From Thermoanaerobaculia bacterium (GTDB lineage Bacteria > Acidobacteriota > Thermoanaerobaculia > Multivoradales > UBA5704), in NCBI GenBank assembly GCA_035544875.1, contig DASZZP010000038.1:192185-256184 (forward strand): a stretch of 64,000 nucleotides of DNA, written 5' to 3'. Below are positions 10,550-49,042 of the stretch, piece by piece. Both the position numbers and the translations under genes were made by a program. The notes beneath the pieces were generated by a model, which was not told the origin of the DNA, made no database searches, and saw only the letters and a program-made list of their open reading frames with translations. Numbering within the stretch: the stretch's first letter is position 1; the number at the start of each line of letters is the position of its first letter.

Positions 10550-10551
10550 GT

Positions 10552-14776: not shown

Positions 14777-14779
14777 TTC

Positions 14780-20219: not shown

Positions 20220-20225
20220 ACCTGC

Positions 20226-32568: not shown

Positions 32569-32816
32569 CGGCGCTCTCCCTGCTCTCGTTCATCGCGCGC
32601 CGCCGGCAGCGCGCCCTCGCCCCAGGGTGGCCAGGCGAAAACGACCAGCAGCCCGAGCAGCGCCGAGGCCGCGACGCAGAAGCCGATGTGATAGAGCAGG
32701 CCGGCCGGCAGGCCGAGCCACAGCCGGCGGTCGTTCCACAACCAGAGATCGTTGTGCAGCAGGTAGAGCACCGCGAGCGCGCTGTAGAGCAGCGCGGCCC
32801 ATCCACGGCGTCTCAT
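32565..32816 (-). CDS. DUF3311-like small membrane protein partnered with the SSS transporter
   Basis: 83 aa, two TM helices, LYLLHNDLWLWND motif. Canonical partner gene immediately upstream of SSS permeases. Confidence 0.6.
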   Translation of the reverse strand: MRRRGWAALLYSALAVLYLLHNDLWLWNDRRLWLGLPAGLLYHIGFCVAASALLGLLVVFAWPPWGEGALPAARDEREQGERR

Positions 32817-34187: not shown

Positions 34188-36365
34188 TCAAGGCTGCCTC
34201 GGGGCCGGCGCCTGGGGGGCGAGGCTGGGCGCGGTCCAGCGCGCCTCGAACCCGGCGTAGACCGCCCGCCCGCTGGCCGGAATGACCGAGGTGGTGCCGA
34301 GCCCGCGCGTGTAAGTGCGCTCGCCGGTCAAGTTCTTGACCTCGATCCTGCCCCGCAGCGGTCCGAGCGGCAGCGACAGGGCGGCGTCGGCGGTGAAGGC
34401 GCCGGGAATGGCGAAGGCGTCGTCGGCCGCGATGAACTGCCGCGACACGTAGCGTCCGCCGGCGGCGAGCTCGAGGCCGCCCGGCAGGCGGCGGGTGAGC
34501 CACAGGTTGGCGATGTGGGCCGGCGCCAGCGGCGGCGTCTTGCCGCTGCGGTCGATGGTGGCGAAGGTGGGCGGCGCGAAGCTGACCAGCACGCTCTCGG
34601 CAAAGCGGGTGAAGACGGCGCGGTCGTAGGCGTAGCTGAACACCACGTCGAGGCCCGCCAGCCGGTGCGCCACCAGCTCGAGCTCGACGCCGCGCGAGCG
34701 CTCGCTGCCGCTCTGCTCGGTGAAGCCGTTGGCATCCGGGATCGCCTGGTTCCGGCGCCGCAGATCGTAGACCGCGAGCGTGCCGCGCAGCCGGCCGCCC
34801 AGCAGCTCGCTCTTGAGCCCCGCCTCGGCCTGGGTGCCGGTCTCCGGCCGGCGCGGCCCGGCGACGCGGGTCGAGGGCGGCGCGAAGCCGCGCCCGGCGT
34901 TGGCGTAGATCGACCAGCCGGCGGCCGGCGAGAAGACGGCGCCGGCCATCGGCGAGAGCTGCGAGTCGCGCCGCGCGGTCGCCGTCGCCCGGTCGCGGTA
35001 GTCGAGATGGTCGAAGCGCCCGCCGAGCAGCAGCTGGAAGCGCTCCGACACCAGCACGCGGTCGAGCACGTAGGGAGCGGCGATCAGCATCCGCGTGTTG
35101 GCGGCCGCCGACTGCCCGGGCAGGGGAACCACCGGGCGCCGCGCCGTCTCCACCGGCGCCAGCAGGTCGATCGGCGGCAGCCCTCCGACGTCGAGCGTGA
35201 AGTTGTCGCCGCGGCGCGCCAGCTCGACTCCGGCCATGAGTTGGTGGGTGAGGCGGCCGGTCCTGGCCTCGACGCTCCCCTCGAGCTGGTTGCCCCAGAA
35301 GCGCTGCCGGTCGTCGAGCAGCACCAGCGCGCGCGCCAGCTCGAGGCGGCCAGTGAAATCGGGAAAAACGCCGGCGAGCAGGGTGCCGTCCGACCGCCAG
35401 GAGAGCTCCCTGTAGTACGCCTTGTCGTGCAGGGTGAAGCCGCCGGCCTTGCCCTGCCAGTCGAGCTGCAACCGGCTGAGCCGCTGGTCCGAGCGATCGA
35501 ACGGCGACTGGTAGGAGCGGCGGACGGGGACGCCGGCGACCCGGTTGCCCACCAGCGGCAGCCCGGCGTCGGGGTGGAAGGAATCCTCGACCCGCTCGAC
35601 GCTCAGGATCAGCGAGCTGTCGGCGTCGCGGCGCCAGGCGAAGGTGGGATTGGCGCCCCAGGCGCGGCCGGAGCGGCCGTCGCGCCAGCCGTCGGTCGCC
35701 TGCCAGAGGCCGTTGAGGCGCAATCCGAGCCGTCCGTCCTGGCCGCTCCAGTTGCCGTCGACGGCGCCCTGGCGGGTGCCGAAGGAGCCGCCCAGCCCCG
35801 ACAGCTGCACGAAGGGATCGGACAGCGGCTGCTTGCGCACGATGTTGACCGCGCCGGCAAGCGGGTTGCCGCCGTAGAGAAAGCTCGCCGGCCCCTTGAG
35901 CAGCTCGACCCGCTCGGCGTTGTAGAGCTGGTAGAAGGTGGTCACCGGCTCGGGCGCGCCGTCGGTCATCACCAGGGCGCTGGTCTCCGAGTCGAGGCCG
36001 CGCACCACGAACAGGTCGGCCACCCCGGATTCGGTGTGAACGCCCACGCCGCTGGCGTTCTTGAGCGCGTCCCCGAGCACCCGCGCGTCCTGCTGCTCGA
36101 GCAGCGGCGCGCCGATCACGTCGACGCTCGCCGGCAGCAGCCGGGTGGGGAGCGGCAGCCGGGCGATCGCGGTGACCGCCGGCACCAGCTCCGCGGTCTC
36201 CTTGACCACCAGCTCCTCGTGATGTTGCAGCAGCGGCGGCCCGGCGGCGGGCTCTTGCGGCGCCGCGGCGGCGGCGGGCGCCTGCGCCGGTCCGCCAGAC
36301 GCCTGGGCCAGCACGGCCGGAGGGCAGGCGGCGAGCACGGCGGTCGCCACGATGGCCAGGGCCAT
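34188..36365 (-). CDS. TonB-dependent outer-membrane receptor
   Basis: Signal peptide MALAIVATAVLAACPPAVLAQA, plug domain (...ERVELLKGPASFLYGGNPLAGAVNIV), 22-strand barrel ending in the aromatic-rich terminal strand ...GFEARW. Confidence 0.85.
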   Translation of the reverse strand: MALAIVATAVLAACPPAVLAQASGGPAQAPAAAAAPQEPAAGPPLLQHHEELVVKETAELVPAVTAIARLPLPTRLLPASVDVIGAPLLEQQDARVLGDALKNASGVGVHTESGVADLFVVRGLDSETSALVMTDGAPEPVTTFYQLYNAERVELLKGPASFLYGGNPLAGAVNIVRKQPLSDPFVQLSGLGGSFGTRQGAVDGNWSGQDGRLGLRLNGLWQATDGWRDGRSGRAWGANPTFAWRRDADSSLILSVERVEDSFHPDAGLPLVGNRVAGVPVRRSYQSPFDRSDQRLSRLQLDWQGKAGGFTLHDKAYYRELSWRSDGTLLAGVFPDFTGRLELARALVLLDDRQRFWGNQLEGSVEARTGRLTHQLMAGVELARRGDNFTLDVGGLPPIDLLAPVETARRPVVPLPGQSAAANTRMLIAAPYVLDRVLVSERFQLLLGGRFDHLDYRDRATATARRDSQLSPMAGAVFSPAAGWSIYANAGRGFAPPSTRVAGPRRPETGTQAEAGLKSELLGGRLRGTLAVYDLRRRNQAIPDANGFTEQSGSERSRGVELELVAHRLAGLDVVFSYAYDRAVFTRFAESVLVSFAPPTFATIDRSGKTPPLAPAHIANLWLTRRLPGGLELAAGGRYVSRQFIAADDAFAIPGAFTADAALSLPLGPLRGRIEVKNLTGERTYTRGLGTTSVIPASGRAVYAGFEARWTAPSLAPQAPAPRQP

Positions 36366-36394: not shown

Positions 36395-37759
36395 TCAAGG
36401 CCGGGCCGCGGCGACGTCGTAGGCCGCCATCGCCTCGCGGTTGCGCAGGAAGAGCTTGCCGCCAGCCAGGCTCGGCCCGGTCCAGCAGCGGCCGGAGAGC
36501 GGCTGGAAGCTCCCCCGCTCGTGGTAGGCCTCCGGGGCGGCGTCGGCCAGCACCAGCTTGCCGCTCTCCGAAAGCACCAGCAGAAGGCCGTCGGCGAGGA
36601 TCACCGAGCCGTGGCCGAGCCCGCGCTCCTTCCAGCGCTCCTCCCCGTTCTGCGCCTTGATGCACTTGAAGGTGCCGTTGTCGAAGCCGTAGAGATAGTC
36701 GCCGGCGAGCACCGACGAGCTGAACTGATTCTTGAGCCCGCGGCTCTTCCACAGTGGCTCGGCAGTCATCTGGCGGGCGTCGCCGCGGATCTGGAAGAGC
36801 GCCGAGCCGGTGTCGTAGCCGGATGAGACAAAGAGTTTGTCGGGGGCCACGAAGAGCGGCGTCGCCGCGTTGACGTCGTAGCTGGTCTCCCAGGGAACCC
36901 GCCAGAGCAGACGCCCGTCCGCCACCGCGAGGCCGGAGACGTACCCGCCGGTGAAGAAGATCGCCTGGCGCACCCCGGCGGCGGTGAGAGCAATAGGGGA
37001 GGCGTAGCCCGGCCGGTCGTCGAGCGCCTTCCACACCACCCGCCCGCTGTGCTTGTCGAACGCCATCGCCGCGCGGCCGCCGCTGCCGCCGGCCGCCACC
37101 AGCAGCAGGTCGCCTTCGACCAGCGGCGAGCTGGAGCTGCCCCAGGTCGGCATCTGGGCTCCGAACTCCTGCGCCAGGTCGTGGCTCCACTCGACCTTGC
37201 CGCTCGCTGCCGCCACGGCGAGCAACTTGCCCTGGGCGCTCTGGACGTAAAGATTGCCATCGTCGAAAGTGGGCGTCGAGCGCGGGCCGTTGCCCTGATC
37301 GTTCATCAGCTCCGAGTCGGTGCGCCGCACCCATAGCTGGTGCCCGTTGGCGGCGTCGTAGGCCGCCAGGTTCTCGGCGTTGTTCGCGCCATACAGCGTG
37401 AAGATGCGCCCGCCGGCGACCGTCAGATGCGAGTAGCCCTCGCCGATCGGCACCTGCCAGAGCTGCCGCGGGCCGCCGGCCGGCCAGCTGTGCAGCAGGT
37501 GCGCCTGGGGCGCGATACCGTCGCGGTGCGGGCCGCGAAACTGCGGCCATTCGCTGCCCGCGGCAGTCGCCGCAGTCGCGGCGCTCGCGCTGCTTGCGTT
37601 GTTCGCAGCAGGGGCGGCGCCGGAGGTTGCCGCGGCGGCGAGGAGCACCGCCGCCATCGCTCCGAGCAGGACCGGAGCGGGCCGCAGCTTCCGCCGGTCG
37701 GTGAGCGCAGTGAGCAGGGTACGGCGGGGAACGGCTGCACGGTGTCTGTTGATGGTCAT
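36395..37759 (-). CDS. Secreted PQQ-like beta-propeller repeat protein 1 (BamB-like)
   Basis: Tat-like signal NRHRAAVPRRTLLTAL. Repeated ...G.lyal...tG..lW motifs (AYDAANGHQLWV, AVAAASGKVEW, AFDKHSGRVVWK, ...). Start assigned to the ATG at 37759 (RBS GGGAGG); the track start 37798 has no RBS. Confidence 0.7.
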   Translation of the reverse strand: MTINRHRAAVPRRTLLTALTDRRKLRPAPVLLGAMAAVLLAAAATSGAAPAANNASSASAATAATAAGSEWPQFRGPHRDGIAPQAHLLHSWPAGGPRQLWQVPIGEGYSHLTVAGGRIFTLYGANNAENLAAYDAANGHQLWVRRTDSELMNDQGNGPRSTPTFDDGNLYVQSAQGKLLAVAAASGKVEWSHDLAQEFGAQMPTWGSSSSPLVEGDLLLVAAGGSGGRAAMAFDKHSGRVVWKALDDRPGYASPIALTAAGVRQAIFFTGGYVSGLAVADGRLLWRVPWETSYDVNAATPLFVAPDKLFVSSGYDTGSALFQIRGDARQMTAEPLWKSRGLKNQFSSSVLAGDYLYGFDNGTFKCIKAQNGEERWKERGLGHGSVILADGLLLVLSESGKLVLADAAPEAYHERGSFQPLSGRCWTGPSLAGGKLFLRNREAMAAYDVAAARP

Positions 37760-37781
37760 GGTGGTCGGCCCTCCCTGGCGG

Positions 37782-39149
37782 TTAGGTGTAGCGCGCATTG
37801 CGGTAACGCTCGTCGTAGAGCTCGGGCAACAGCTGATCGACGCGCAGCAGCCCGGCGTGGGTGAGCTCGATGCGGTCGGCGAACGGCTGCAGCATGCCGC
37901 GCTGCCGCAGCCGCTCCCAGGCCGGCGCGAACTCGGCGCGCACGTCGACCCCGAACTTGTCCTGGAAATAGGCGCCGTCGAGCCGCCCGAGCTTGAGCTG
38001 CAACGCCGCCTCGCGGGTCAGCAGCTCGTGCGGGCTCGGCACCAGGCCACGCTCGAGCGGCAGCCGGCCGCCCTCCACCGCCCCCAGGTAGTCGCTCCAG
38101 GTGGCGGTGTTCTGGAAGTGGCAGCCGTTGACGTGCGAGAACGACGAGATGCCGGTGCCGAGCATGTCACAGCCGTGCCAGACGGCGTCGCGATAGACGA
38201 AGCGGCAGCTCTTGTCGCGGCGCACCAGGGTGTAGGCGCTCGACTGCTCGTAGCCGGCGGCGGTGAGCTGCTCGAAGGCGTATTCCTGCCAGGCGCGCCG
38301 GGTCTGCCAGCCGGCGAAGGTCATCGCCGGGGAGTCGAGCGAGCCGCCCAGCACGCTCTTCGAGAAATCCGTGTTGTAGGGCAGCTCGAGCTGATAGATG
38401 GTGACGCTGTCCGGCGCCAGGTCGAGCGTCTTCTTGACCGTCTCGCGCCACGCCGGCCACGACTCGCCGAGCATGCCGGCGATCAGGTCGATGTTGAGCT
38501 GATCGAACGCCAGCTCCTTGATCCACGGCATCACCCGGTAGATCTCCGCCGAGAGATGGGCCCGTCCGTTGGCGCTCAGGATCTCGTCGTCGAAGTTCTC
38601 GACGCCCAGCGACAGGCGGGTGACGCCGAAGGCGCGGACCGCCTCGAGCTTGGAGCGGGTCAGGGTGCCGGGCTCGCACTCGAAGGTCACTTCCTCGACG
38701 CCGTCCCACGGCATGACGCGGCGCATCCGCTCGACCAGGCCGGTCAGCTGGCGCACGCTGAGCAGCGACGGCGTGCCGCCGCCGAAATAGACGAAGCGCA
38801 GCGGGCGGCCGGCGGTCGCGGGCAGCTCGCCATAGTGCTCGATCTCCCTGCCGAGCGCCTCCAGGTAGCGGTTGATGGCTGCGCTGTCCATCTCGGTGAA
38901 GACCCGGAAATAGCAGAACTTGCAGCGCTTACGGCAGAAAGGCAGGTGCAGGTAGAGGCCGAAATCGGTGCCCGGGCGCGGCGGGGAGGCGAGCGCCGCC
39001 TCGACGCGCGGCAACTCCTCGCCGCTCCAGAACGAGAACGGCGGATAGTTGGCCACGAACAGGTTGCCCACCGGGGGCGGATCGGCCAGCAGCGAGGAGG
39101 CGAGCTCAGCGCCCTCCTGCCTCCGTGCTGGACTCGCGGGCTCGATCAT
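37782..39149 (-). CDS. HemN/HemW-like radical SAM enzyme (class C radical SAM family)
   Basis: LYLHLPFCRKRCKFCYF (CxxxCxxC) ...YFGGGTPSLL... plus the HemN C-terminal domain. ATG at 39149 overlaps the upstream stop (ATGA). Confidence 0.8.
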   Translation of the reverse strand: MIEPASPARRQEGAELASSLLADPPPVGNLFVANYPPFSFWSGEELPRVEAALASPPRPGTDFGLYLHLPFCRKRCKFCYFRVFTEMDSAAINRYLEALGREIEHYGELPATAGRPLRFVYFGGGTPSLLSVRQLTGLVERMRRVMPWDGVEEVTFECEPGTLTRSKLEAVRAFGVTRLSLGVENFDDEILSANGRAHLSAEIYRVMPWIKELAFDQLNIDLIAGMLGESWPAWRETVKKTLDLAPDSVTIYQLELPYNTDFSKSVLGGSLDSPAMTFAGWQTRRAWQEYAFEQLTAAGYEQSSAYTLVRRDKSCRFVYRDAVWHGCDMLGTGISSFSHVNGCHFQNTATWSDYLGAVEGGRLPLERGLVPSPHELLTREAALQLKLGRLDGAYFQDKFGVDVRAEFAPAWERLRQRGMLQPFADRIELTHAGLLRVDQLLPELYDERYRNARYT

Positions 39150-40378
39150 GATGCGCCGTCTCCCTTTCCCGGTCTCGCCGCAAAGCAGTAGAGCGTGCCG
39201 TCGAGCGTGCCGACCACCAGCCGGCCGCCGGCGATCGCCGGCGAGGCCTCGATCGCCGCGCCGGCGGCGAACTGCCAGACCGGCTTGCCGGTGCGGTCGT
39301 CGAGGGCGAAGATGTCGCCGCTGCGCGCCGCCGCGACCGCGAGGCCACCGACCAGCACGGGCGAGGAGTCGACCGCGGCGCGGGCGGCGAAGGTCCAGAG
39401 CTCCTCGCCGGTGCGCGGCGACAGCGCGTGCACCAGCTTATCGCGGCCGCCCACCACCAGCAGGTCGTCGCGCACCGCCGCTGAGGAGTAGTACGGAAAC
39501 TTGAGCCGCGAGTTCTCGTAGCGCCACGCCACCCTGCCGGAACGCAGGTCGACCGCCACCAGCTGGTTCTCGAAAGTGCCGACGAACGCCCGCCCCAGGG
39601 CGACCGCCGGGCTGGCGCCGAGATAGCCGCCGAGGGCGACCTTCCAGACCTCGGCGCCGTTGCGCGCCCGCAGCCGCCGCAGGTTGCCGTCGCAGCCGGC
39701 GATCAGCACCGCGTCGCCTGAGACCGCGGGCGTGGCATTGACGTAGCCCCCGGTCTCCCGGCTCCAGCGCCGCGCGCCGTCGGCCGCGGACAGGCAGTAG
39801 ACGCTGCGGTCGTAGGAGCCGAAGAGCACGCAGCCGGCGGCAAAATTGGCCGCCGAGACGATCTCGGCGCCGGTGCGGAAGCTCCAGCGGCGCCGCCCGG
39901 TGGCGGCGTCGATGGCGTGGAAGACTCCATGCCCGTCGCCGAAGTAGACGACGCCGTCGCGCACCGCCGGCGAGGAGCGAATAGGACCCTCGGCGCGATA
40001 CTTGAAACGCAGCGCGCCGCTGTCCAGGCTGAGGGCGTATAGATTGCCGTCGAGCGAACCGACGTAGGCGCTGCCGTGCCAGATCGCCGCCGTCGAGGCG
40101 ATGCCGGCGCCCGCCTTGAACGTCCACACGGGGGCGAGCTCCCGGCCGAGAGCGCCAGCGGCGCGCCCGGTGAGCTCGGGATCGCCGCGGAACAGGGCCC
40201 AGGCGGCGCCGGCCGCCTCGCCCGCTGCTTTGCCTGCCGCTGTGCAAGCCGCCTTGCCTGCCGTTTTGGAAGACGCTTTGCCTCCAACACCCGCCGCGGC
40301 ATCGACCCCTGTCGCCGCCAGCCGCAGGCAGGCCAGCGCGAGCAGCGCGGCGGTTGCGGGACGTGGGCGAGGTCGCAT
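39146..40378 (-). CDS. Secreted PQQ-like beta-propeller repeat protein 2
   Basis: Signal peptide MRPRPRPATAALLALACLRLAATG. Repeats ...GNLYALSLDSGALRFKY, VFHAIDAATGRRRWSF, VYCLSAADGARRWS, LVAVDLRSGRVAWRY, IFALDDRTGKPVWQF. Confidence 0.75.
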   Translation of the reverse strand: MRPRPRPATAALLALACLRLAATGVDAAAGVGGKASSKTAGKAACTAAGKAAGEAAGAAWALFRGDPELTGRAAGALGRELAPVWTFKAGAGIASTAAIWHGSAYVGSLDGNLYALSLDSGALRFKYRAEGPIRSSPAVRDGVVYFGDGHGVFHAIDAATGRRRWSFRTGAEIVSAANFAAGCVLFGSYDRSVYCLSAADGARRWSRETGGYVNATPAVSGDAVLIAGCDGNLRRLRARNGAEVWKVALGGYLGASPAVALGRAFVGTFENQLVAVDLRSGRVAWRYENSRLKFPYYSSAAVRDDLLVVGGRDKLVHALSPRTGEELWTFAARAAVDSSPVLVGGLAVAAARSGDIFALDDRTGKPVWQFAAGAAIEASPAIAGGRLVVGTLDGTLYCFAARPGKGDGAS

Positions 40379-40422
40379 GGCGCAATGGGTCTGGCGTGCG
40401 GGTCTTGCCGTCGTCACGGGAT

Positions 40423-41727
40423 TCAGTAGGCCTGCTGGTAGAGCCACAGCAAATCGGCTTCGCCGACCAGCCGCGGGTTGAAGCGGGCGGTCCACTGCCG
40501 CGCCGCCTCGCACGCCAGCTCCTCCAGGGCCGCCGCCTCGACGCCGACCTCGCGCAGGCGCGCCGGTAGACCGGCGGCGGCGCGCAGCGCCTCGATCCTC
40601 GCCGCCAGCTCCTCTCCCCCGGCGTATGGGCCGAGCCCGGGGTAGCCGCCGGTGTCTAGAGTCGGCGGAGTCGGCGGAGTCGGGGGAGTCGGCGGTGTCA
40701 GAGTCGTGGCCGGCGGCCGGGCGCTGTTGAAGCGCACCACGTGCGGCAGCAGCAGGGCGACCGCGGCGCCGTGCACGATGCCGTAGCGGGCGGTGAGCGG
40801 GTTGGCGCAGGCGTGCGCCGCCCCCAGCATCGAGACCTCGATTGCCGCGCCGGCGAGATGGGCGCCGAGCAGCATGGCGCCGCTGGCGCCGGCATCCTCC
40901 GGCGCCGCGAACGCGCGCTCGAGGCTCGGCTCGAGCAGCCGCCAGGCCTCGCGCGACAGCATCCGCGACACCGGGTTGGCGCGCCGGCATACCAGACTCT
41001 CGACGGCATGCGAGAGGGCGTCGAGCCCGGCTGCCGCCGCCACCCGGCGCGGTGCGCTCCCGACCAAGGCCGGATCCAGGACCACGATGCGGAAACGCGC
41101 CTTGCGGTCGCCGCAGGCCATCTTCTGGTGGCTCTCCTCCTGCGAGATCAGGGCGTAGGACTGCGCCTCGCTGCCGGTGCCGGCAGTGGTGGGAACGCCG
41201 ATCGCCGGCAGCATCGGCCGCCGGGCGCGGCCAAAGCCCTGGTAGTCCTCCATGCGGCCGCCGTTGGTGAGCAGGAAGTTGATCCCCTTGGCGCAGTCCA
41301 TGGCGCTGCCGCCGCCGAGGCCCACCAGCAGGTCGGCGCCCCACTCTGCTGCGGCGTCGCGGCCGGCCTCCACCTGCCGCGTCGTGGGGTTCTCGCCCAC
41401 CCCGTCGAAGACCCGCGCCGCCACCTCCGCCGCGCCCAGGACGACCGCGGCGCGCTCGACGTGGCCCGCGGCGCGCACCCCGGGGTCGCTGACCAGCAGC
41501 GCACGGCGGCCGCCGAGCTCGCGCGCCAGCTCGCCCAGGGCCGCCACCGCGCCGTGGCCGAAGAGCACGTCGATGCCGCCCACCTCGGCCCGCCACTCGG
41601 CTGCCCGCCACTCCGCCGCCGCGGGCGGCGTCCGGGAGCCGGGATCGGTGCTGGGTTCGCTGGCTGCGCCGGCGTCGCTGGCGCCGCCGGCTCCACTGGC
41701 TACGCTGCCTCTGAACACCGCGCTCAT
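40423..41727 (-). CDS. Iron-containing (group III) alcohol dehydrogenase
   Basis: ...LVGLGGGSAMDCAKGINFLL...GVPTTAGTGSE...LDALSHAVES... Contains an inserted PPTPPTPPTPPT stretch from a 9-nt tandem DNA repeat. ATG at 41727 overlaps the LuxC-like stop (ATGA). Confidence 0.8.
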   Translation of the reverse strand: MSAVFRGSVASGAGGASDAGAASEPSTDPGSRTPPAAAEWRAAEWRAEVGGIDVLFGHGAVAALGELARELGGRRALLVSDPGVRAAGHVERAAVVLGAAEVAARVFDGVGENPTTRQVEAGRDAAAEWGADLLVGLGGGSAMDCAKGINFLLTNGGRMEDYQGFGRARRPMLPAIGVPTTAGTGSEAQSYALISQEESHQKMACGDRKARFRIVVLDPALVGSAPRRVAAAAGLDALSHAVESLVCRRANPVSRMLSREAWRLLEPSLERAFAAPEDAGASGAMLLGAHLAGAAIEVSMLGAAHACANPLTARYGIVHGAAVALLLPHVVRFNSARPPATTLTPPTPPTPPTPPTLDTGGYPGLGPYAGGEELAARIEALRAAAGLPARLREVGVEAAALEELACEAARQWTARFNPRLVGEADLLWLYQQAY

Positions 41728-43361
41728 CGGCCCTCGCCCTCCGGCGCCGACACGAGCGCCGGCGGCTGAGGCAGCGGCGCCGGGGGCGCCGCCAGGCCGG
41801 GGCCCAGGCCGGCCACGCGCAGCGCGCGGCGGCGGTAGAGCAGGTCGAAGAGGTTGCCTTCGTGCGGCTGGGCAAAGGAGACCTGCCAGGTCGGCACGGC
41901 GCCCAGGTGCAGGTGATCGACGTCGCGGCAGGCGAGCAGCTCGCCGCGCAGCTCCTCGTCCGCGGTCAGGACGGTCGCCACTAGCGTCGGACCGAGGCGC
42001 GCCGGCAGCTCGGCGCGCGGTACTTCGACCACCGCGCCGAACGGGAAGAGCAGCTCGGCGCGGGCCAGCGGGTGGTCGGCATCGCGCACCCAGATCAGGG
42101 TCGGCAGCAAGAAGGTGCAGCCGTCGACCTCAACCACGCGCCCGCCACTCCGATCGCCGCGCGCCGCGGCGGTCAGGTCTTCGGCCTCCCCCGGGGCCAG
42201 CCGGCGATCGATCCACTCCGAGATGCGGCGCGCCGCCGCGGGGTCGGGCCACGCCGCCAGCTCTGCGCGCGGGTCGTCGAGCGGACGCGCCTCGACCGCG
42301 GCCAGGCGCCGCGCCAGCGCCTCGGCGAATTCGCGCGCCGGCGTGGAGCGGCCACCGCGCGCCGGGCCGGCGCCGCTGGCGGCCTGGGCGCCGTCAACGG
42401 CTTCCAGCCAGACCCCCGAGGCGTTGATGCACGAGCGGCCGCCATTGGCGAGCAGCGAGCTCGCCACCAGCTCGAGGTGGGAAGGCCACTCGGCGAGCTG
42501 GTCGGCACCCATGATCACCTTGCTGAAACCCGGCCCATGGACCTCGATCCGCCGGTCGCCGCGCCACGGGCTGACCGTCGCCGCGTCGCCAAATAGCAGC
42601 GAGCGGCCGCAGCGCAGCAGGATCTCGGCGGCGCCGGCGTGGTCGGTGGGATAGAACGAGAGCGCCGCCGGCGGGCAGCCCGCCGCCGCCAGGGCGCGCA
42701 GCAGGCGCAGTGGGGTCCAGGGCTCGTCGCGCCCCGGCTTGAGCGCCAACCCGACACCCAGCGCCGGCGCGGCCAGCCACAGCCCATGCACCCCCGGCGA
42801 GTTGCTCGGCAGCACGGCGCCCAGGGTGTCGGCGAGGCGCTGGAAGTGCGCGCCGCCGGCGTCGCGCTCCGGAGCCGAGGAATCGAGGGCGGCGGCCGGC
42901 AGGCCGCGCGTCAGCCCGGCAACCACCTCTTCCATCCCGGCGAGCGTGGCGCGCAGCTTCTCGAGGTTGGCGCGCGCCAGGGTCAGCGGCAGGCCGGTGG
43001 TGGCCGAGACGTCGCGCAGGTAGTCGGCGGGCGCCTGCGTCTCGCCGTCAAAGCCGACCGCCAGCTCGCCTTCGGCGAACAGCGCCGCCGCCCGGCGGCA
43101 GATCGCCAGCCGCTCGCCGAGCGGCAGCGCACCCAGGGGCGCCGCCAGCCGGCTCTCGCGGCTCTCGGGTACGCGCGCCGCCGCGGCGGCCGGAGCAAGG
43201 CTCGCGCCCAGATCGCGGGCGATCAGGGCGGCATTGGCCTGGCTCACCTCGGCCACCAGCTCGCCGCTGCGCAGATCGCGCAGCCGCGCCACCTCGGCGC
43301 TGCGATAGGCGGCGCCGCCGCGCAGCACCGGCAGGTGCAAGGCCACCGGCCGCCGCGCCAT
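41724..43361 (-). CDS. LuxC-like acyl-CoA reductase / aldehyde-dehydrogenase-superfamily protein
   Basis: ...LPSNSPGVHGLWLAAPALGVGLALKPGRDEP... and the catalytic region ...LANGGRSCINASGVW (conserved Cys). 545 aa. ATG at 43361 overlaps the stop of the adenylating-enzyme gene (ATGA). Confidence 0.55.
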   Translation of the reverse strand: MARRPVALHLPVLRGGAAYRSAEVARLRDLRSGELVAEVSQANAALIARDLGASLAPAAAAARVPESRESRLAAPLGALPLGERLAICRRAAALFAEGELAVGFDGETQAPADYLRDVSATTGLPLTLARANLEKLRATLAGMEEVVAGLTRGLPAAALDSSAPERDAGGAHFQRLADTLGAVLPSNSPGVHGLWLAAPALGVGLALKPGRDEPWTPLRLLRALAAAGCPPAALSFYPTDHAGAAEILLRCGRSLLFGDAATVSPWRGDRRIEVHGPGFSKVIMGADQLAEWPSHLELVASSLLANGGRSCINASGVWLEAVDGAQAASGAGPARGGRSTPAREFAEALARRLAAVEARPLDDPRAELAAWPDPAAARRISEWIDRRLAPGEAEDLTAAARGDRSGGRVVEVDGCTFLLPTLIWVRDADHPLARAELLFPFGAVVEVPRAELPARLGPTLVATVLTADEELRGELLACRDVDHLHLGAVPTWQVSFAQPHEGNLFDLLYRRRALRVAGLGPGLAAPPAPLPQPPALVSAPEGEGR

Positions 43362-44502
43362 CAGTACACCCCGACCACCACCGAGCTGGCGAGCGCCTCG
43401 AGCAGGCGCACGTTGCGCACCCCGTCCCACGGGAACCCGGCGACCGGGGCGGCGCGCTCGGCCTGGTCGCGCTCGAGGAAGCGCGGCATGAAAAACTCGC
43501 GCGTCAGGGTGGTGAGCATCACCTGTCCGGTTTCGCCGTACTCCACCCGCCGCTCGGGATCGTCGGGATCCACCAGCTCGAGCACGGCGCGCGGTTGCGG
43601 CGCGTAGTAGGTGATGGCCCAGCGCGACTCGGGCGGCTCGGGCGACTCGGAGACGCCGCCGCCGGCGCCGTCCGCCGCGCCCGCCCCCCCGGGGGCGGGA
43701 CAGGCGAGCCCCATCAACGTGTTGCCGTAGACCGGGTAGAAGACGACGCCCGGGATCAGCTCCTCGCGCGCGAAGCGGTGGAACTGCGGGCTCATCTCGG
43801 TGCCGCCGCAGAAGACGCCGCGGATGCCCAGCCGCGGCAGCGCGACCCGCTCGGCAAGCGCGGCGAGCAGCTTCGGCGTGGTGAACAGGCAGCGGATGCT
43901 CTCGTGCGCCCGCAGCAGCTTGAGCCCCTGCTCGACGACGTGGCGCTTGTAGGCCTCGAGCTCCCGCGGCCGGCCGTCCCTGATCAGCTCGTTGACCCAG
44001 CGCGGATCGAGGTCGACCAGGAAGCAGATGCCGCCGCGGTGCTGGGCCAGGTGCTCGATCGCCAGGCGCAAGCGGCGCGGCCCGGTCGGCCCCAGCATCA
44101 GCCAGTCGGCGCCGCGCGGGAAGCCGTCCTCCGGGAGGCGCTCGCTCAGCTGCTCGTAGTCGATGCGGAAGTCCTCGATGTTGATGCGCGACTTCGGCAG
44201 GCCGGTCGAGCCGCCGGTCTCGAACACCGCGATCGGGCGGTCGGCCAGGGCGCGCGGCACCCAGCGCCGGATCGGACCGCCGCGCAGCCACTCGTCCTCG
44301 AAGTGGCCCAGCCGCCGCAGGTCGTCGTAGCCGCCGATCTCGCGCCGCGGATCGAAGTCGAGGCGTCGGGCGTAGTCGAGCCAGAACGGCGAGCCGGTCG
44401 CGGGGTCGAAGTGCCAGCGCACGACCTCGCGCACGTGCTCGTCGAGCCGCTCGCGGGCAGCCCTCACCGCCGCGGCCAACGAGCTCTCGAGGATGGCGGT
44501 CA
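43361..44502 (-). CDS. LuxE/PaaK-like adenylate-forming enzyme (acyl-protein synthetase / phenylacetate-CoA-ligase fold)
   Basis: AMP-binding P-loop FETGGSTGLPKSR, ...VFCGGTEMSP..., about 380 aa. No in-frame ATG is available, so a TTG start at 44502 (RBS GGAGAG) is proposed. Start is uncertain. Confidence 0.5.
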
Positions 44503-44577
44503 AGATCTTCTCTCCGGCGTCGTAGCCCGCTCGTCCTGCCCGCTCGTCCTGCCCGGTCGTCCTGCCAAGAGCCTCCG

Positions 44578-46233
44578 CTACCGCGGAGGCCTGACGGGAG
44601 CGGCTGATGCCGGGTCCGCTGAGGCCGCCGCCTTGTGCTCCGGAATGCCTTCGGCGATCGCGAACAGCTTCGAGCGGGAGGTGACGTAGAGCACGCCGTC
44701 GCGCGCCACCGGGGTGCTGAACACGGCGCTCCCCAGATTGATCTTGCTCAGCACTTCGAGCTGGCGGGCCGCCCGCAGCACCGCGACGTCGCCGTCCTCG
44801 TTGCCGATATAGACCTTGCCGTCGGCGAGGAGCGGCGAGCCCCAGATCGCGCCGTAGGAGTTGTAGACCCAGTACGGCTTGCCGGTCTGGGCGTCGAGGC
44901 AGTAGACGTAGCCCGAGAAATCGGCCGTGAACAGCAGTCCGTCGCGCACCGCAACCGTCGACAGGCTGCGATGGAAGTCCTCGCCGCCGCGTTGCCAGAC
45001 CACCGCCTTGCCGGTCAGGTCGCCCTCGCCGCGCGGCCGCAGCGCCCACAGGTGGCCGATGCCTTCGCCGTGTTCGGGGTCCTCGCCGACCGCGACGTAG
45101 ACCATGTCGCCGGCGATCACCGGCATCGCTAGGATGCCGTTGCGCGTCGAGCCGGGACCGATGGTGTAGACCGAGTCCTTGGGGTTGCAGTCGAAGCGCC
45201 AGATGACCTTGCCGGTCTTCGGCTCGAGGGCGTAGAGCCAGCCGTCGCCGCCGGCGAAGAGCACCTGCGGCTTGCCGTCGAGGACGCCATAGGAGGGGCT
45301 CGACCACTGCCCGTGCAGGATCTTCTCGCCCGGCAGCGAGCTCTGCCAGACGACCTTGCCGGTGTGCTTGTCGACGGCGAGGAAGCTGGGCGCCCGCGGC
45401 GCCGGGATGTTGATATGCCCTTCGTCGACGCCGTTGCCGGTGACCACGTAGACCAGGTCGTCGATGACCAGCGGGCTGCTCGCCGCTTGGTTGTGCGGGT
45501 AGACGCCGAGCTCGCCGATCATGTCGAGCTTCCAGACGAAATCGGCGTCGATCTCGCTGGTCTCGGTCTCGGCGGTGAAGGGGCCGTCGTTCTTGCCGTC
45601 GCGGAACCCCTCGGTGTCGGCGCACACCAGCTCGGCGCGGTTCGAGACGTAATAGAGCCGGTTGCCCTCGACCGCCGGCGTCGAGCAGATGCCTTGCAGC
45701 GGCCAGTCGTTGACCTTGCCCTGGCTCAGCTTGTCGTGTGCGGCCTGCCAGAGGAACTGGCCGTCGGCGGCGCGGAAAGCCATGATCACACCGCGGTCGC
45801 CGGTGATCTTCGGATTGCGCTTGCCCTGGTTGTTGGTGCCGACGAAGACCTTGCCGCCGGCCACCAGCGGCCCGCCATAGCTCTGCGACCCCAGGTCGGC
45901 GGCCCACTTGACATTGAGGCCGGTCGCGGGGTCCCAGCGGCTGGGCAGGTGGGTCGCGTCCGAGACCATGTTGCGCGCCGGAGTGCCGCCGTACATCGCC
46001 CGGTCGGCCGCGCCGCCCGGCGCCGATGCCGCCGGCAGTGCCTGCGCCGCCGCGGTTGCCGGCGCCGGCCGGGCCGCCGATCCGCCAGGCGGTGCCGGAG
46101 AAGCTGGCGCCGCTGCCGGCGCGGACGGCGCGGTCGGCGCTGTCGGAGACATGGGCGCCGGCTCGAGGCGGCCGGCGGCGAACAGCGCCGCGAGCGCCAG
46201 CAGCTGACCTTTACCGATCATCCTTGCCATCAC
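44578..46233 (-). CDS. Secreted PQQ-like beta-propeller repeat protein 3 (551 aa)
   Basis: Signal peptide MMARMIGKGQLLALAALFAAG, Pro/Ala-rich linker, then 8 propeller-blade repeats (...GQFLWQ, ...GKVVWQS, ...GKVIWRF, ...GKPYWVY). Confidence 0.75.
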   Translation of the reverse strand: MMARMIGKGQLLALAALFAAGRLEPAPMSPTAPTAPSAPAAAPASPAPPGGSAARPAPATAAAQALPAASAPGGAADRAMYGGTPARNMVSDATHLPSRWDPATGLNVKWAADLGSQSYGGPLVAGGKVFVGTNNQGKRNPKITGDRGVIMAFRAADGQFLWQAAHDKLSQGKVNDWPLQGICSTPAVEGNRLYYVSNRAELVCADTEGFRDGKNDGPFTAETETSEIDADFVWKLDMIGELGVYPHNQAASSPLVIDDLVYVVTGNGVDEGHINIPAPRAPSFLAVDKHTGKVVWQSSLPGEKILHGQWSSPSYGVLDGKPQVLFAGGDGWLYALEPKTGKVIWRFDCNPKDSVYTIGPGSTRNGILAMPVIAGDMVYVAVGEDPEHGEGIGHLWALRPRGEGDLTGKAVVWQRGGEDFHRSLSTVAVRDGLLFTADFSGYVYCLDAQTGKPYWVYNSYGAIWGSPLLADGKVYIGNEDGDVAVLRAARQLEVLSKINLGSAVFSTPVARDGVLYVTSRSKLFAIAEGIPEHKAAASADPASAAPVRPPR

Positions 46234-46237
46234 CGCG

Positions 46238-48484
46238 TCACCGGTTCCTTGTCACGCTCAGGTTGGTGAACAGGATCTCCGCCGGCGAGTAGCCGTAGAG
46301 TCCCGGGCTGCCGTTGCGCACCGGGCGCGGGTCGCGCGCGGTGACCGTCCAGCCGGCGGGCTCCGGCTCGCCGCGCGGCCACACCTTGCCGCGGATCAGC
46401 CCCTGGTCGCCTTGCACTTCGGCCCGCAGCTTCATCGTGTACCAGACGTCCGGCGTCCACTTGAAATCGACCTGCTCCATCAGCCGCAGCTCGGTGTCCC
46501 AGGCGCGCAGCTGCAGGCGCTGGCTCGCCCCCATCAGGTCGAGGACGTAGCCGCTGGCGATCAGCCCCATGTCCGGCAGCACCTGGCCGGCCTGGGTGCC
46601 GAGCAGGTCGGCCTGCACCGTGTAGTCGCGCAGCGTCGGCGGGCCGATATAGGTGTTCGCGCGGTGGAGGCCGCGCGGCGCCGGGGGCTTGGCCAGGACC
46701 CTGCCGTAACGGGTCTCCTTGACCACGAACTTGCCGGGAGCGCCCACCCAGCCGGGCGGCGAGCTGGGCGCCAGCGCCGCGAAGTCCTCTTTCCAGGGGA
46801 GATCGGGCACCACGCGCACCCGCGCCTTGGCGGCGAGCTCGCCCCAGCGTGCGTTGATCTCTCCGGTCTGGAATCCGCGGCCGGGGTCGGCGACAAACGT
46901 GCCGTCCGCGTCGAGGCGGCCGGCCAGCCCCGCCAGCGACCAGCTCACTGCTGAGGACGCTCCGGGCGGCGGCGCCACCGCCAGGCCCTGCTCGTCGAAG
47001 GCCACGCCGCGGAAGCGCGCCGGCTCGCCCGGCCGGATCAGCACCTCGGCAGGCACCACCTGCAGCAGGCGCGCGCCCCCGGCGGCCGGCGTGCCCGCCC
47101 CGGCCGCCCTGCCTGCCGGCTCGGCCGCGCTCTCGGCCCGCAGCGGCTGCGACTTTTCGCCCAGGCAGTAGAGCCCGCTCTCGGCGGCGAAGTAGATCCG
47201 CCCGTAGGCCACCGCCGGCGAGCCGTAGATCTCGGCGAAGCGGCTGCCGTCGGCGGTGCGCAGGCGCTGCTCGTCGAGCACCTCCACGCTGCCGCGGCTG
47301 GGCTTCAGGATGTCGAACCGGCCGTTGACCTCGGCGACGTAGAGCTTGCCGTCGGCCCACACCGGCGACGCCTTGCCGATGGTGCCGAGCTTGTGCCTCC
47401 AGAGGATCTTGCCGGTCGTTGCGTCGAGGGCGGCGAGGGCGGCCGCGTTGTCCACGACGTAGAGCAGCCCGTCGTGGTAGAGCGGCGACGGGAAGCCCGA
47501 CACCACCTCGTCATTGCGCCAGAGCTCGTGCGTGCGCGTCACGTCGCCGGTGCCGGTGGCGTCGATCGCTACCACCCTGCCCTGCAGCCCGGTGTCGAGG
47601 TTCTCCTCGCCGTGGGCGGCGAAGACCACCTTGTCGTGCACGACCACCGTGTTGTTGAACGCGCCCTTGCTCAGGTGAAAGCTCCAGACCTTCTCGCCGG
47701 TGCGCGCCTTGAGCGCGTAGATCCAGCCGTCGCCCTGACCTTCGATGAGCAGCCGCTGGCCGCCGATCTCGGCCACCACCGGCGTCGTCTGGATGTTGAA
47801 ATCCTGCGGCAGCTCGCCGGGGGTCGACACCCAGCGCAGCTCGCCGGTGCGCTTGTCAAAGGCGAAGACGCGGTGGCGGGGGGGACCCTGGTCGCCCCAG
47901 CCGGCGTTGACGAAGCTGACGATCAGCCGGTCCTCGTCCACCAGCGGCGAGTGCGTGCGGCCGCCGACCCCGGAGATGAGTCCGAACTCCTCGGTCAGCG
48001 ACCGCCACCACGCGATCTTGCCGTCGCGGTCGAAGCAATACAGCAGCCCGCCGACGCCGAGCGCGTAGACGTTGCCGGTCTCGCGGTCGGCAGCCAGGCT
48101 GCCCCAGCCGACGCGGCTGAACGGCACCGCCGTGAGATAAACGTCGAGAAAACGCTCCCAGAGCTTGCGGCCGCTGGCCGCGTCGAAGCAGGCCACGCTC
48201 TCCTGGCGAGTTGGACCGTTGCCGACGCGGCCGTTGGCACAGACCCGGCCGCCGACCACCACCGGCGTCGAGCGGCCGCTCAGATCGGCCCGCCAGACCA
48301 GGTTCTCGCCCGCGGGGCTCCACTTCGAGATCAGCTGGACGTCGCTCGCGACGCCGTTCTGCTGCGGCCCGCGCCAGGAAGGCCAGTCAGCCCGGACGCG
48401 CCGTGCCCCGAGCCCGCCCGCCAGCAGGATGCATCCCAACCCGATCAGCAAGCGCCGCCACGGCATCGCTCTCGCTCCATTCAT
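46238..48484 (-). CDS. Secreted PQQ-like beta-propeller repeat protein 4 with an extra ~300-aa C-terminal domain
   Basis: Signal peptide MNGARAMPWRRLLIGLGCILLAGG, propeller repeats (...GRKLWER, ...GELRWVS, ...GEKVWSF, ...GKILWRH), then a non-propeller domain of unknown family. Start assigned to the ATG at 48484 (RBS GGTGAGGA). Confidence 0.7.
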   Translation of the reverse strand: MNGARAMPWRRLLIGLGCILLAGGLGARRVRADWPSWRGPQQNGVASDVQLISKWSPAGENLVWRADLSGRSTPVVVGGRVCANGRVGNGPTRQESVACFDAASGRKLWERFLDVYLTAVPFSRVGWGSLAADRETGNVYALGVGGLLYCFDRDGKIAWWRSLTEEFGLISGVGGRTHSPLVDEDRLIVSFVNAGWGDQGPPRHRVFAFDKRTGELRWVSTPGELPQDFNIQTTPVVAEIGGQRLLIEGQGDGWIYALKARTGEKVWSFHLSKGAFNNTVVVHDKVVFAAHGEENLDTGLQGRVVAIDATGTGDVTRTHELWRNDEVVSGFPSPLYHDGLLYVVDNAAALAALDATTGKILWRHKLGTIGKASPVWADGKLYVAEVNGRFDILKPSRGSVEVLDEQRLRTADGSRFAEIYGSPAVAYGRIYFAAESGLYCLGEKSQPLRAESAAEPAGRAAGAGTPAAGGARLLQVVPAEVLIRPGEPARFRGVAFDEQGLAVAPPPGASSAVSWSLAGLAGRLDADGTFVADPGRGFQTGEINARWGELAAKARVRVVPDLPWKEDFAALAPSSPPGWVGAPGKFVVKETRYGRVLAKPPAPRGLHRANTYIGPPTLRDYTVQADLLGTQAGQVLPDMGLIASGYVLDLMGASQRLQLRAWDTELRLMEQVDFKWTPDVWYTMKLRAEVQGDQGLIRGKVWPRGEPEPAGWTVTARDPRPVRNGSPGLYGYSPAEILFTNLSVTRNR

Positions 48485-48513
48485 CGTTCGAGTCCTCACC
48501 GCCAGTGCTGATC

Positions 48514-48778
48514 CCGAGGGATGAACGGCACTGCGATGCGGCAGTGGAGGCCTACTCGAAGCATCCATCGGATCGCCACCCGCATCCCCCGCGAGTCCCC
48601 TTCCCGGTTGTCGGAAGCCGCCGGGTCCCGACCTCCGGGAAGTGCCGCACGTCCATCACCGGACGTGCGGCCGACTTCCGAGGAGTGCCGCCCGGCCATA
48701 GCCGGACGGGCGGCCTGCCCGGGGGCGCCGGGGGGGAAGGGGACGCCCCCTCCCCCTCACAGCGGGGAGTTTCGTCTT
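48514..48778. repeat. Copy A of a ~150-nt repeated intergenic element carrying a nested REP pair
   Basis: Shares the ccgagggatgaaNggcNctgcgatNNggcNgtggaggcctactcgaagcatcNatcgg...ccccttccc core, a G-rich palindrome (gggggaaggggacgccccctcccc) and a tcgtctt tail with 63045..63192. A REP pair (48630..48715) is inserted between the core and the palindrome. Confidence 0.65.
48630..48715. repeat. Tandem pair of 43-nt REP-like palindromic elements (second locus, nested inside the larger repeat)
   Basis: gacctccgggaagtgccgcacgtccatcaccggacgtgcggcc followed by a diverged unit whose changes largely preserve the stem, though the right arm has one mismatch (ggacgggcggc where ggccgggcggc is needed). Confidence 0.7.
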
Positions 48779-49042
48779 ACCGCACGCCGCGCCATCCTGC
48801 CTCCCCCGGCGCACGCCAGCCTGCGGCTGAGCATACATCGACCTGCCGGAATCGGCTATCACCCTCCCCCTTCAGCAATGGTGTTGAAGGAAGCGCTGCC
48901 AAGAATGTCCTCCCCTGGCACTGGGTCATTCTAAAGTGACCCCGTACCCCTCCCCCTGCAGCGCGACCACGAGCGCGTAGACTGCTGGTTTCGGACTCAC
49001 CGGCGATTCAGCCGGCCGGAAGCTGGGTGAGGAGGATTCCCG

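Follow-up and report, generated by a model that had tools for sequence, protein, structure and literature searches.

The 64,000-nucleotide stretch of Thermoanaerobaculia DNA analyzed here (contig DASZZP010000038.1, positions 192,185 to 256,184; the window) encodes four secreted β-propeller proteins, which we call P1 to P4, and these are periplasmic components of one 16-gene, envelope-spanning operon. They constitute four distinct, individually conserved families of Sec-exported, soluble, eight-bladed propellers with the PQQ_2/PQQ_3 fold (PQQ, pyrroloquinoline quinone). Our tentative preference, held at a little less than an even chance, is that they are periplasmic binding or processing parts for a glycosylated small-molecule product of the operon rather than BamB-like scaffolds. 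Secreted PQQ-repeat propellers were already known as a general class, and so was their fold. What is new is the tie between four conserved propeller families and a defined operon that spans phyla, together with the architecture of P4, in which the propeller is followed by an immunoglobulin (Ig)-like domain and an unclassified lectin-like domain.

All four proteins matched Pfam PQQ_2 (PF13360) far above its cutoff of 27.6 bits, with scores of 124, 157, 102, and 128 bits (E values of 8e-36, 9e-46, 7e-29, and 8e-37) for P1 to P4, respectively. Each starts with a Sec signal, basic and then hydrophobic and ending in AxA, as do the orthologs from other phyla, and a conserved mature N terminus follows directly: DWPQ[FW]RGP in P1, DW.SFRGN.QLTG in P2, TAMWG.TP.RN in P3, and DWPSWRGP in P4. 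These results confirm the original prediction, made from the DNA alone, of four secreted PQQ-like propellers. It had allowed six to eight blades for each, and the number is eight. The AlphaFold2 (AF2) model of P4, for which 26 orthologs were aligned (predicted local distance difference test [pLDDT] score, 84.4; predicted template modeling score, 0.87), has eight four-stranded blades, as read from its strand list, with the N-terminal strand closing the propeller. The alignment of P3 with P4 covered all eight blades (hhalign probability, 100%; E = 2.8e-40; 403 columns), that of P1 covered P4 residues 60 to 418, and P1 to P3 are predicted by homology to be eight-bladed as well. The four had also been called paralogous, which is true only at a distance: pairwise identities are 24 to 27%, but the match between P1 and P2 was not significant, and P2 falls in another, regular-repeat subfamily. 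Literature searches found no papers on PQQ-like or BamB-like propellers in Acidobacteria and none describing this cluster; those on EhpF and EhpG brought up annotation tables and background only.

The original view that these proteins are not ordinary PQQ dehydrogenases was supported. Against TIGR03075, the methanol/ethanol family of PQQ dehydrogenases, P1 to P4 scored 36.0, 80.4, 48.5, and 44.6 bits where the cutoff is 480, and only one or two blades of each aligned locally to solved PQQ dehydrogenases, with no full-length alignment. A motif scan found no vicinal Cys-Cys in P1 to P4 and no CxxCH in these or the other operon proteins, and the scanned genes of the window included no cytochrome c partner and no pqq biosynthesis genes. 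We nevertheless considered whether the propellers could be noncanonical quinoproteins that use scavenged PQQ or a new cofactor modified by the operon enzymes. They have the PQQ-repeat fold, and Foldseek matched the P4 model to PQQ-/lanthanide-dependent alcohol dehydrogenases (E about 1e-15). The many invariant arginines in the P4 loops would suit a polycarboxylate ligand, the TonB-dependent receptor of the operon could import a cofactor, and EhpF and EhpG, of which the operon encodes homologs, are said to act on an aromatic dicarboxylate in the known case (for context, PMC3175449). Set against the results above, and against a negligible match of the receptor to the PQQ receptor PqqU (31.9 bits versus a cutoff of 1200), this explanation seems highly improbable.

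The propellers had further been described as BamB-type scaffolds, and neither half of that description was supported. Scores against the BamB family TIGR03300 were 60.0, 171.6, 83.2, and 84.6 bits for P1 to P4, below the cutoff of 285.2, and the PRK11138 cutoff of 423 was not reached either. No lipobox cysteine was conserved in the ortholog N termini, where AxA is followed by D/E and W; P1 to P4 are therefore signal peptidase I substrates and not lipoproteins.

Conservation in P3 and P4 also argued against a scaffold. P3 is the most conserved of the four, with 223 of its 452 mature positions at least 95% invariant among 22 orthologs from several phyla; its homologs are 61 to 92% identical, and its orthologs across phyla are 55 to 65% identical. 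The conserved motifs include GTNN....NPK.TGDRG, GRVNDWP.QGICS, DGENDGP, and FPHNLA, as well as NGVDEGH.HIP, LHGQWSNPAY, GQDPEHGEG.GH, and DEDGD, and a broader alignment of 23 sequences retained four invariant histidines (H247, H273, H307, and H388) plus many Asp, Glu, and Asn residues. The Pro/Ala-rich linker that follows its signal peptide is lineage specific. A P3 profile run against PDB sequences returned repeat-level matches to PQQ-type blades and no specific enzyme relative, and P3 weakly matched the propeller of a lambda-carrageenase. The P3 loop GQDPEHGEGxGH aligned with the P4 loop HSEENxD. In P4, the invariant residues are R65, R80, R118, R170, R197/R199, H285/E287/E288/N289/D291, N340, K365, E379, R409/E412, and E429; as read from the secondary-structure string of the model, they would map to D-to-A and B-to-C loops that share one face of the propeller. 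The strongest Foldseek matches of P4 were BamB (E = 9e-18; PDB 8orr; template modeling score of 0.74 on the target) and tetrathionate hydrolase (E = 2e-16).

P2 presents a different picture. P2 is made of eight regular repeats of ~40 amino acids and scored 188.7 bits against PF13570 (Beta-prop_ACSF4; cutoff, 133), and its full-length PDB matches were the designed 8-fold propellers "Cake8" and "Bagel8" and the archaeal template 3hxj. Judging by its repeats, it looks like a propeller of the kind typical of binding modules. Its orthologs are 49 to 59% identical in 16 loci, 15 of which have the radical S-adenosylmethionine (SAM) gene within the fetched stretch, and its position is constant, between the iron-containing alcohol dehydrogenase (Fe-ADH) gene and the radical SAM gene. 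P1 orthologs are 44 to 56% identical in the loci that we call type A below, and its relatives in type B loci are ~41% identical.

All four might still be noncatalytic, BamB-like scaffolds that organize a periplasmic or outer-membrane complex for assembly and trafficking; the TonB receptor and the ABC/FtsX periplasmic domain would belong to it, and it would serve the cluster product. The BamB-like eight-bladed fold, the symmetry of P2, which resembles that of binding modules, and the lack of cofactor motifs are all in keeping with such a role, as is the presence of a propeller beside FtsX or the receptor in many loci. However, the propellers are not lipoproteins and fall below the BamB cutoffs, the invariant His, Asp, Glu, Arg, and Asn loops of P3 and P4 go beyond the conservation usual in scaffolds, and tetrathionate hydrolase, the nearest fold match apart from BamB, is an enzyme. 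We regard the scaffold explanation as unlikely. Ligand binding or catalysis is favored for P3 and P4 because of their extreme conservation, their invariant polar loops, and the fold match to tetrathionate hydrolase; a site for a ligand or for catalysis accounts for this pattern better than BamB-like scaffolding does, and it is unlikely that these two are mere scaffolds.

P4 homologs keep the full architecture (718 to 801 amino acids, 52 to 83% identity). The part beyond the propeller had been set down as an extra C-terminal domain of unknown family. The extension is real, consisting of an Ig-like β-sandwich and a jelly roll, and the fold of the jelly roll proved recognizable as like that of a lectin or carbohydrate-binding module (CBM). 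When residues 553 to 742 were modeled alone, they formed a concanavalin A (ConA)-like jelly roll with a pLDDT of 91.5, and this domain carries the motif pointed out earlier, GWVGAPGKFVVKE...TRYGRVL. It was recognized by fold comparison only: nothing was found in Pfam at E values up to 10, nor in a PDB sequence-profile search, and the domain has no detectable sequence relationship to CBM66, the galactocerebrosidase lectin domain, or DUF1080, which belong to the ConA-like lectin/glucanase superfamily. An exhaustive search with the domain collected 1032 representatives at E values up to 0.001. Ten differing architectures were sampled from these; a PQQ_2 propeller was present in six (above the Pfam cutoff in five and weak in one), three had no Pfam domain at all, and one was a 1988-amino-acid purple acid phosphatase protein with five matched stretches. 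The P4 jelly roll is a separate sequence family that, in this sample, sits mostly on PQQ_2 propellers.

In a set of Poribacteria loci (L014, L016, L018, L020, L023, L024, L025, and L028 among the related loci described below), P4 is split into adjacent open reading frames (ORFs) upstream of the P3 ortholog, one encoding the propeller (~446 amino acids) and the other the Ig-like and lectin-like domains (~313 amino acids). This is either a natural domain split or a shared frameshift, and it is confined to one Poribacteria lineage.

We used the EhpF-like gene of the operon as the probe for related loci because it was the most distinctive gene; 85 loci were fetched, the window proteins were compared with them by tblastn, and all ORFs were clustered. 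The EhpF-like protein is 61 to 69% identical in at least 600 species-representative genomes, from Poribacteria, Latescibacterota, Gemmatimonadota, and most classes of Acidobacteriota, and the operon ranges from soil Acidobacteria to sponge-symbiont Poribacteria. Type A loci have the order P4-P3-EhpF-EhpG-FeADH-P2-radical SAM-(P1)-TonB receptor or porin-halogenase-DUF3311-SSF-(GT4), where SSF is a sodium:solute symporter, and GT4 is a family 4 glycosyltransferase; these loci were found in Thermoanaerobaculia, Polarisedimenticolia, isolate Mor1, Poribacteria, Latescibacterota, and Gemmatimonadota. The order P4-P3-EhpF recurs in 31 loci, and FeADH-P2-radical SAM recurs in 15. Type B loci, with the order EhpF-EhpG-GT4-ABC-giant FtsX (ABC, ATP-binding cassette), occur in Pyrinomonadaceae, Blastocatellia, Bryobacteraceae, Vicinamibacteria, and Chloracidobacterium, often with a P1- or P4-like propeller straight after FtsX and a large TonB-dependent receptor nearby. 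The EhpF-EhpG-GT4-ABC-FtsX core is present in more than 600 species genomes, mostly with propellers close by. In the window, the type A modules interrupt the type B core, lying between its EhpG and GT4 genes. At least one propeller lies within 10 kb of EhpF in 38 of the 46 loci that are 18 kb or longer.

Such propellers are abundant in Acidobacteria and are labeled generically by annotation pipelines, so that members of an expanded PQQ_2 family could in principle have come to lie among unrelated enzyme genes. Yet distant phyla share the four orthologous families and their order, and start and stop codons of neighboring genes overlap. Chance clustering is ruled out by this synteny across distant phyla, any residual probability being vanishingly small. 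Because the operon and the link between the propellers and the EhpF-EhpG-GT4-ABC-FtsX core both recur across phyla, the original suggestion of a periplasmic role dedicated to the cluster product is a fair one.

The base composition of the window is 72% GC, and overlapping ORFs were resolved with third-position GC (GC3) frame plots and a codon usage score. These gave a single minus-strand series of 16 genes running from ~48.5 kb down to ~24.3 kb (Table 1), with intergenic gaps of no more than 99 nt and overlaps of 4 to 17 nt at six junctions. Three NCBI proteins (P0001, P0121, and P0241) are 100% identical to window proteins. As had been noted from the DNA alone, the propeller genes are interleaved with enzyme genes and a TonB receptor gene adjoins them. 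The span first given for P4, 46238 to 48484, begins at an in-frame ATG that does exist, six codons upstream of the start at 48466 in the NCBI model P0001.

Table 1. Features of the propeller operon, listed in the direction of transcription
Feature	Position	Strand	Description or basis
Noncoding leader upstream of P4, ~570 nt	48467-49040	-	Sequence
P4	46238-48466	-	Secreted 742-amino-acid PQQ_2 propeller + Ig-like + ConA-like lectin domain
P4 Ig-like β-sandwich linker, residues 467-552	46811-47068	-	Our reading of the AF2 secondary structure
P4 lectin/CBM-like jelly-roll domain, residues 553-742	46241-46810	-	Fold comparison
P3	44578-46233	-	Secreted 8-bladed propeller; Pfam PQQ_2
EhpF-like adenylating enzyme, ANL superfamily	43361-44503	-	PDB EhpF 3l2k/3hgu
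EhpG-like aldehyde-dehydrogenase-fold protein	41724-43346	-	Weak Pfam Aldedh match; homology to Pantoea EhpG
Fe-alcohol dehydrogenase	40423-41727	-	Pfam Fe-ADH, E = 3e-44
P2	39146-40378	-	Secreted regular-repeat PQQ_3/ACSF4-type propeller; PF13570
HemN-like (class C-like) radical SAM enzyme	37782-39149	-	Radical_SAM + HemN_C
P1	36395-37798	-	Secreted 8-bladed propeller; Pfam PQQ_2
TonB-dependent siderophore-type outer-membrane receptor	34188-36365	-	Plug + barrel domains
Flavin-dependent halogenase, PltA/Bmp2/CndH type	32813-34171	-	PDB halogenase matches, motifs
DUF3311 small membrane protein	32565-32816	-	Pfam
Sodium:solute symporter (SSF)	30991-32568	-	Pfam; NCBIfam sss superfamily
GT4 glycosyltransferase	29562-30983	-	Pfam
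LolD/MacB-type ABC ATPase	28723-29559	-	Pfam, NCBIfam
Giant 1275-amino-acid double-FtsX permease	24911-28738	-	Pfam, NCBIfam FtsX x2
Small membrane protein with 5 transmembrane segments, last operon gene	24275-24811	-	Hydropathy

The leader of the operon holds a tandem 43-nt repeat at 48628 to 48713 (repeat family D1), the two copies of which are 81% identical and each contain a GC-rich hairpin. By eye, several of the base differences between the copies appear to preserve stem pairing. Rfam returned no riboswitch or other family for the whole window or, at a relaxed threshold, for the operon leader. The repeat could act as a regulatory RNA or as a protein-binding element for the operon.

The assignments of the EhpF- and EhpG-like proteins, Fe-ADH, radical SAM enzyme, halogenase, GT4, ABC/FtsX pair, TonB receptor, and SSF symporter are shown by homology. 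Residues 12 to 380 of the EhpF-like protein aligned to residues 11 to 366 of PDB 3l2k (E = 1e-42), which is a full-length match, and its identity with Pantoea EhpF is 31% end to end (E = 2e-47). Like EhpF, it is without the C-terminal domain of ANL enzymes, and it has the motif TGGSTGLPK. The EhpG-like protein had four Pantoea agglomerans plasmid matches (31% identity over 43% of the query), all to the aldehyde dehydrogenase gene, and in the one record opened (pASB05p2) this gene is EhpG adjoining EhpF, the same adjacency and gene order as in the window. Identity with Pantoea EhpG is 27% over 430 amino acids (E = 7e-34), and the region around the active-site Cys aligned as GGRSCINASGV in the EhpG-like protein and GGAACVCASSV in EhpG.

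In phenazine tailoring, EhpF and EhpG are thought to convert an aromatic carboxylate to the aldehyde, and Bera and colleagues reportedly treated them in 2010 as a pair that adenylates and then reduces. We considered a LuxC/LuxE-type fatty acid reductase as an alternative for this pairing of an adenylase with an aldehyde dehydrogenase and rejected it, there being no Pfam LuxE or LuxC match and a direct match to EhpF and EhpG. EhpF-O turn phenazine-1,6-dicarboxylate into a product in which a carboxyl has become a hydroxymethyl group (PMC3175449). The phz core genes (phzA-G) were absent from the window and from the related loci inspected, and the substrate is therefore not established as a phenazine. 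The scanned window genes included no nonribosomal peptide synthetase (NRPS), polyketide synthase (PKS), phz, or pqq genes and no cytochromes.

Among the other cytoplasmic enzymes, the Fe-ADH fell under every NCBIfam equivalog cutoff. The radical SAM enzyme has the motif CRKRCKFC (CX3CX2C) and matched HemN (PDB 1olt, E = 7e-35) and the class C methyltransferase NocN (E = 7e-28) but reached no NCBIfam equivalog cutoff, those of HutW (179 of 400 bits), HemN (173 of 325), and HemW (140 of 205) included; by its sequence, it is HemN-like, of an unnamed subfamily. The flavoprotein is, by the same kind of evidence, a relative of true flavin-dependent halogenases: its best PDB matches were 8zop (E = 5e-64) and PltA (E = 6e-59), and it has the motifs GGGPAG at residue 30 and WFWYIP at residue 236. 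Lower in the ranking came CndH, CmlS, and entries deposited as halogenases that we presume to be Bmp2 and Mpy16.

Two further systems that this set of genes brings to mind were rejected. In quinohemoprotein amine dehydrogenase-like maturation, a QhpG-like flavoprotein and a radical SAM enzyme occur with an ABC exporter and a propeller; here, however, the flavoprotein resembles true halogenases far more closely, the radical SAM enzyme is like HemN and not of the SPASM type, and the gaps in the operon are too small for a small peptide gene. Heme uptake with anaerobic degradation (HutW/ChuW) does not fit either: the radical SAM enzyme scored equally and weakly against HutW, HemN, and STM4012, and the receptor belongs with siderophore receptors, not heme receptors.

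The TonB receptor scored 240.9 bits against the siderophore receptor subfamily TIGR01783, above the cutoff of 223.5; in locus L005, a porin replaces it. The DUF3311 protein and the SSF symporter are kept in loci L015, L082, and L017. GT4 comes directly after EhpG in at least 40 type B loci, where the ABC ATPase and FtsX permease genes are retained behind it, and EhpF-EhpG-GT4 is the most widely conserved core. LolD is the nearest family for the ATPase (251.6 bits, below the cutoff of 307.75), and the permease has two FtsX domains and, from hydropathy, predicted periplasmic domains of ~650 (residues 33 to 686) and ~240 amino acids. The small membrane protein encoded by the last gene (ORF family F19) is present in 13 related loci and had no Pfam or NCBIfam match.

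Taken by itself, the combination of TonB receptor, SSF symporter, aldehyde dehydrogenase, and Fe-ADH resembles an uptake pathway. The locus might on this basis be a catabolic or salvage system in which an external glycoside or aromatic compound enters via the TonB receptor, propeller enzymes trim it (P4 being an enzyme with a CBM), the symporter imports the product, and cytoplasmic oxidoreductases degrade it. CBM-like and Ig-like domains are a usual feature of secreted carbohydrate-active enzymes, P3 has its weak match to the lambda-carrageenase propeller, and PhyH, thiamine pyrophosphate (TPP)-enzyme, and amidohydrolase genes are inserted in some loci. The most widely conserved genes point the other way, however: an ATP-consuming activator (EhpF with EhpG), a glycosyltransferase, and an exporter-type ABC system (LolD-like, with FtsX) fit synthesis and export, and the halogenase and class C-like radical SAM enzyme are tailoring enzymes. 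Identities of 55 to 69% from soil bacteria to sponge symbionts would also be unusual for substrate-specific catabolic loci. We consider a catabolic role quite unlikely.

Under our preferred reading, in which the propellers bind or process the product of the operon, a small and probably aromatic carboxylate would be activated and reduced by the EhpF/EhpG-like pair, and the Fe-ADH would reduce the resulting aldehyde to an alcohol. Tailoring by the halogenase and the radical SAM enzyme and glycosylation by GT4 would also take place in the cytoplasm. Passage across the inner membrane might be aided by the ABC/FtsX machine and the small membrane protein; the molecule would then cross the outer membrane and could be taken up again via the TonB receptor and the SSF symporter. 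In the periplasm, the secreted propellers would bind it or process it chemically, by analogy with pyoverdine maturation. P4 may anchor the sugar part through its lectin-like domain. P3, a paralog and constant neighbor of P4, would be the likeliest of the four to serve as a catalytic subunit that depends on a metal or cofactor, given its invariant loops rich in His, Asp, and Glu, while P2, encoded between the Fe-ADH and the radical SAM enzyme, and P1, encoded beside the outer-membrane channel, are more likely to be binding or adaptor modules.

Several observations count against this scheme. The operon encodes no scaffold-forming enzyme (NRPS, PKS, or phz) and no product or substrate gene, and the chemistry is guessed from the tailoring enzymes; nor does it contain a membrane fusion (adaptor) or TolC-like partner gene for the ABC/FtsX pump. 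No propeller lies within 10 kb in eight long type B loci, and PQQ_2 propellers are so numerous in Acidobacteria that some of the adjacency may be due to chance. We also entertain, as a very unlikely extension, the idea that the secreted propellers, P3 and P4 above all, are new periplasmic enzymes dependent on a metal or cofactor. The EhpF/EhpG-GT4 core would make an aromatic metallophore or redox cofactor, halogenated and glycosylated, which these enzymes would mature, load, or recycle. The operon would then be a previously unrecognized, phylum-spanning envelope system of Acidobacteriota, Gemmatimonadota, Latescibacterota, and Poribacteria, and its product could even be the missing cofactor of the "empty" quinoprotein-like propellers so common in these phyla.

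The related loci showed a number of insertions. Extra tailoring-type genes lie inside the cluster in L004 (9100-9975, 11171-12919, and 14693-16872) and L001 (5097-6682), the inserted genes encoding a PhyH dioxygenase, a TPP-dependent enzyme, an aminoglycoside phosphotransferase (APH)-type kinase, a creatininase family amidohydrolase, and a cupin; this suggests that there are lineage-specific variants of the product. An IS200-type Y1 transposase gene separates the EhpF and EhpG orthologs of L001 (14975-15406), and a restriction-modification and AAA-ATPase island comes directly after the P4 ortholog of L002 (12309-22220). A complete type A cluster was also found on a contig labeled "Patescibacteria group bacterium" (L012; DASROJ010000342.1). 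This contig is probably misbinned, since an operon for a TonB receptor and periplasmic proteins is implausible in Patescibacteria.

Elsewhere in the window, a low-GC patch with atypical ORFs lies just downstream of the operon (22900-24150; 61.5% GC in the bin 22001-24000 versus ~72%) and may be acquired or decaying DNA; the N terminus of one minus-strand ORF there (23381-24148) resembles, by eye, that of an FadL-type outer-membrane protein. Further downstream is a minus-strand polysaccharide or glycoconjugate gene set (12021-21439) that includes a GT2-pyruvyl transferase fusion (17556-19661), a DegT-type aminotransferase (14780-16033), a GT4 glycosyltransferase (13463-14776), and two large ORFs that fall in no family (16030-17559 and 12021-13355). 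A second duplicated FtsX permease, of ordinary size (858 amino acids; MacB_PCD and FtsX x2), is encoded on the minus strand at 7901-10911, with a PadR family regulator just upstream.

Few secreted protein families of Acidobacteria and related phyla are as expanded, or as poorly understood, as the PQQ-like propellers, which pipelines label "BamB" or "PQQ-binding-like". The operon, present in hundreds of mostly uncultured species, sponge symbionts included, offers a handle for assigning their function, in the form of a gene set, a candidate chemistry, and cultured carriers, among them isolate Mor1 (Acidobacteria bacterium Mor1; CP011806, 4.795-4.816 Mb). The analysis also defines a new family of lectin-like domains found mostly on these propellers. 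Should the product prove to be a metallophore or a cofactor, the system would matter for how major soil and marine lineages acquire metals.

Comparison with known systems places the propellers among several relatives and apart from each. BamB (YfgL), the best Foldseek match of the P4 propeller, shares with them an eight-bladed, PQQ_2-type propeller that lacks cofactor motifs. However, BamB is a lipoprotein of ~390 amino acids encoded in the context of Bam genes, whereas P1 to P4 have signal peptidase I signals with no conserved Cys there and belong to a metabolite operon; P4 in addition has the Ig-like and lectin-like domains, and P3 and P4 have strongly conserved polar loops. The type I PQQ-/lanthanide-dependent alcohol dehydrogenases (MxaF, XoxF, ExaA, and PedH) likewise are periplasmic and have eight "W-motif" blades, but their propellers are ~570 to 600 amino acids long, compared with ~400 to 450 here, where there is no Cys-Cys and no full-length profile match. 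Tetrathionate hydrolase of Acidithiobacillus (6l8a), the second-best fold class for P4, is a cofactor-free, secreted, eight-bladed propeller enzyme, and catalysis without PQQ is therefore possible on this fold; its catalytic residue is Asp325, its identity with P4 is 16%, and its context is sulfur oxidation.

At the level of the whole pathway, the logic is like that of pyoverdine and its receptor FpvA, although this is an analogy only, homology being limited to generic ABC/FtsX and TonB parts, and the operon has no NRPS and no adaptor or TolC-like gene. PvdT, of the pyoverdine exporter, is of the MacB type. The pyoverdine precursor arises in the cytoplasm and is matured by enzymes of the periplasm, from which PvdRT-OpmQ exports it, and uptake is through a TonB receptor (PMC9305348, PMC6206403). 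The D-alanylgriseoluteic acid cluster of Pantoea agglomerans provides full-length homologs of the EhpF/EhpG-like pair with the same adjacency and order. In contrast to that cluster, the pair described here comes without a phz core, its EhpF-like member is 61 to 69% identical across phyla, and it is joined to GT4, to ABC/FtsX, and to the propellers.

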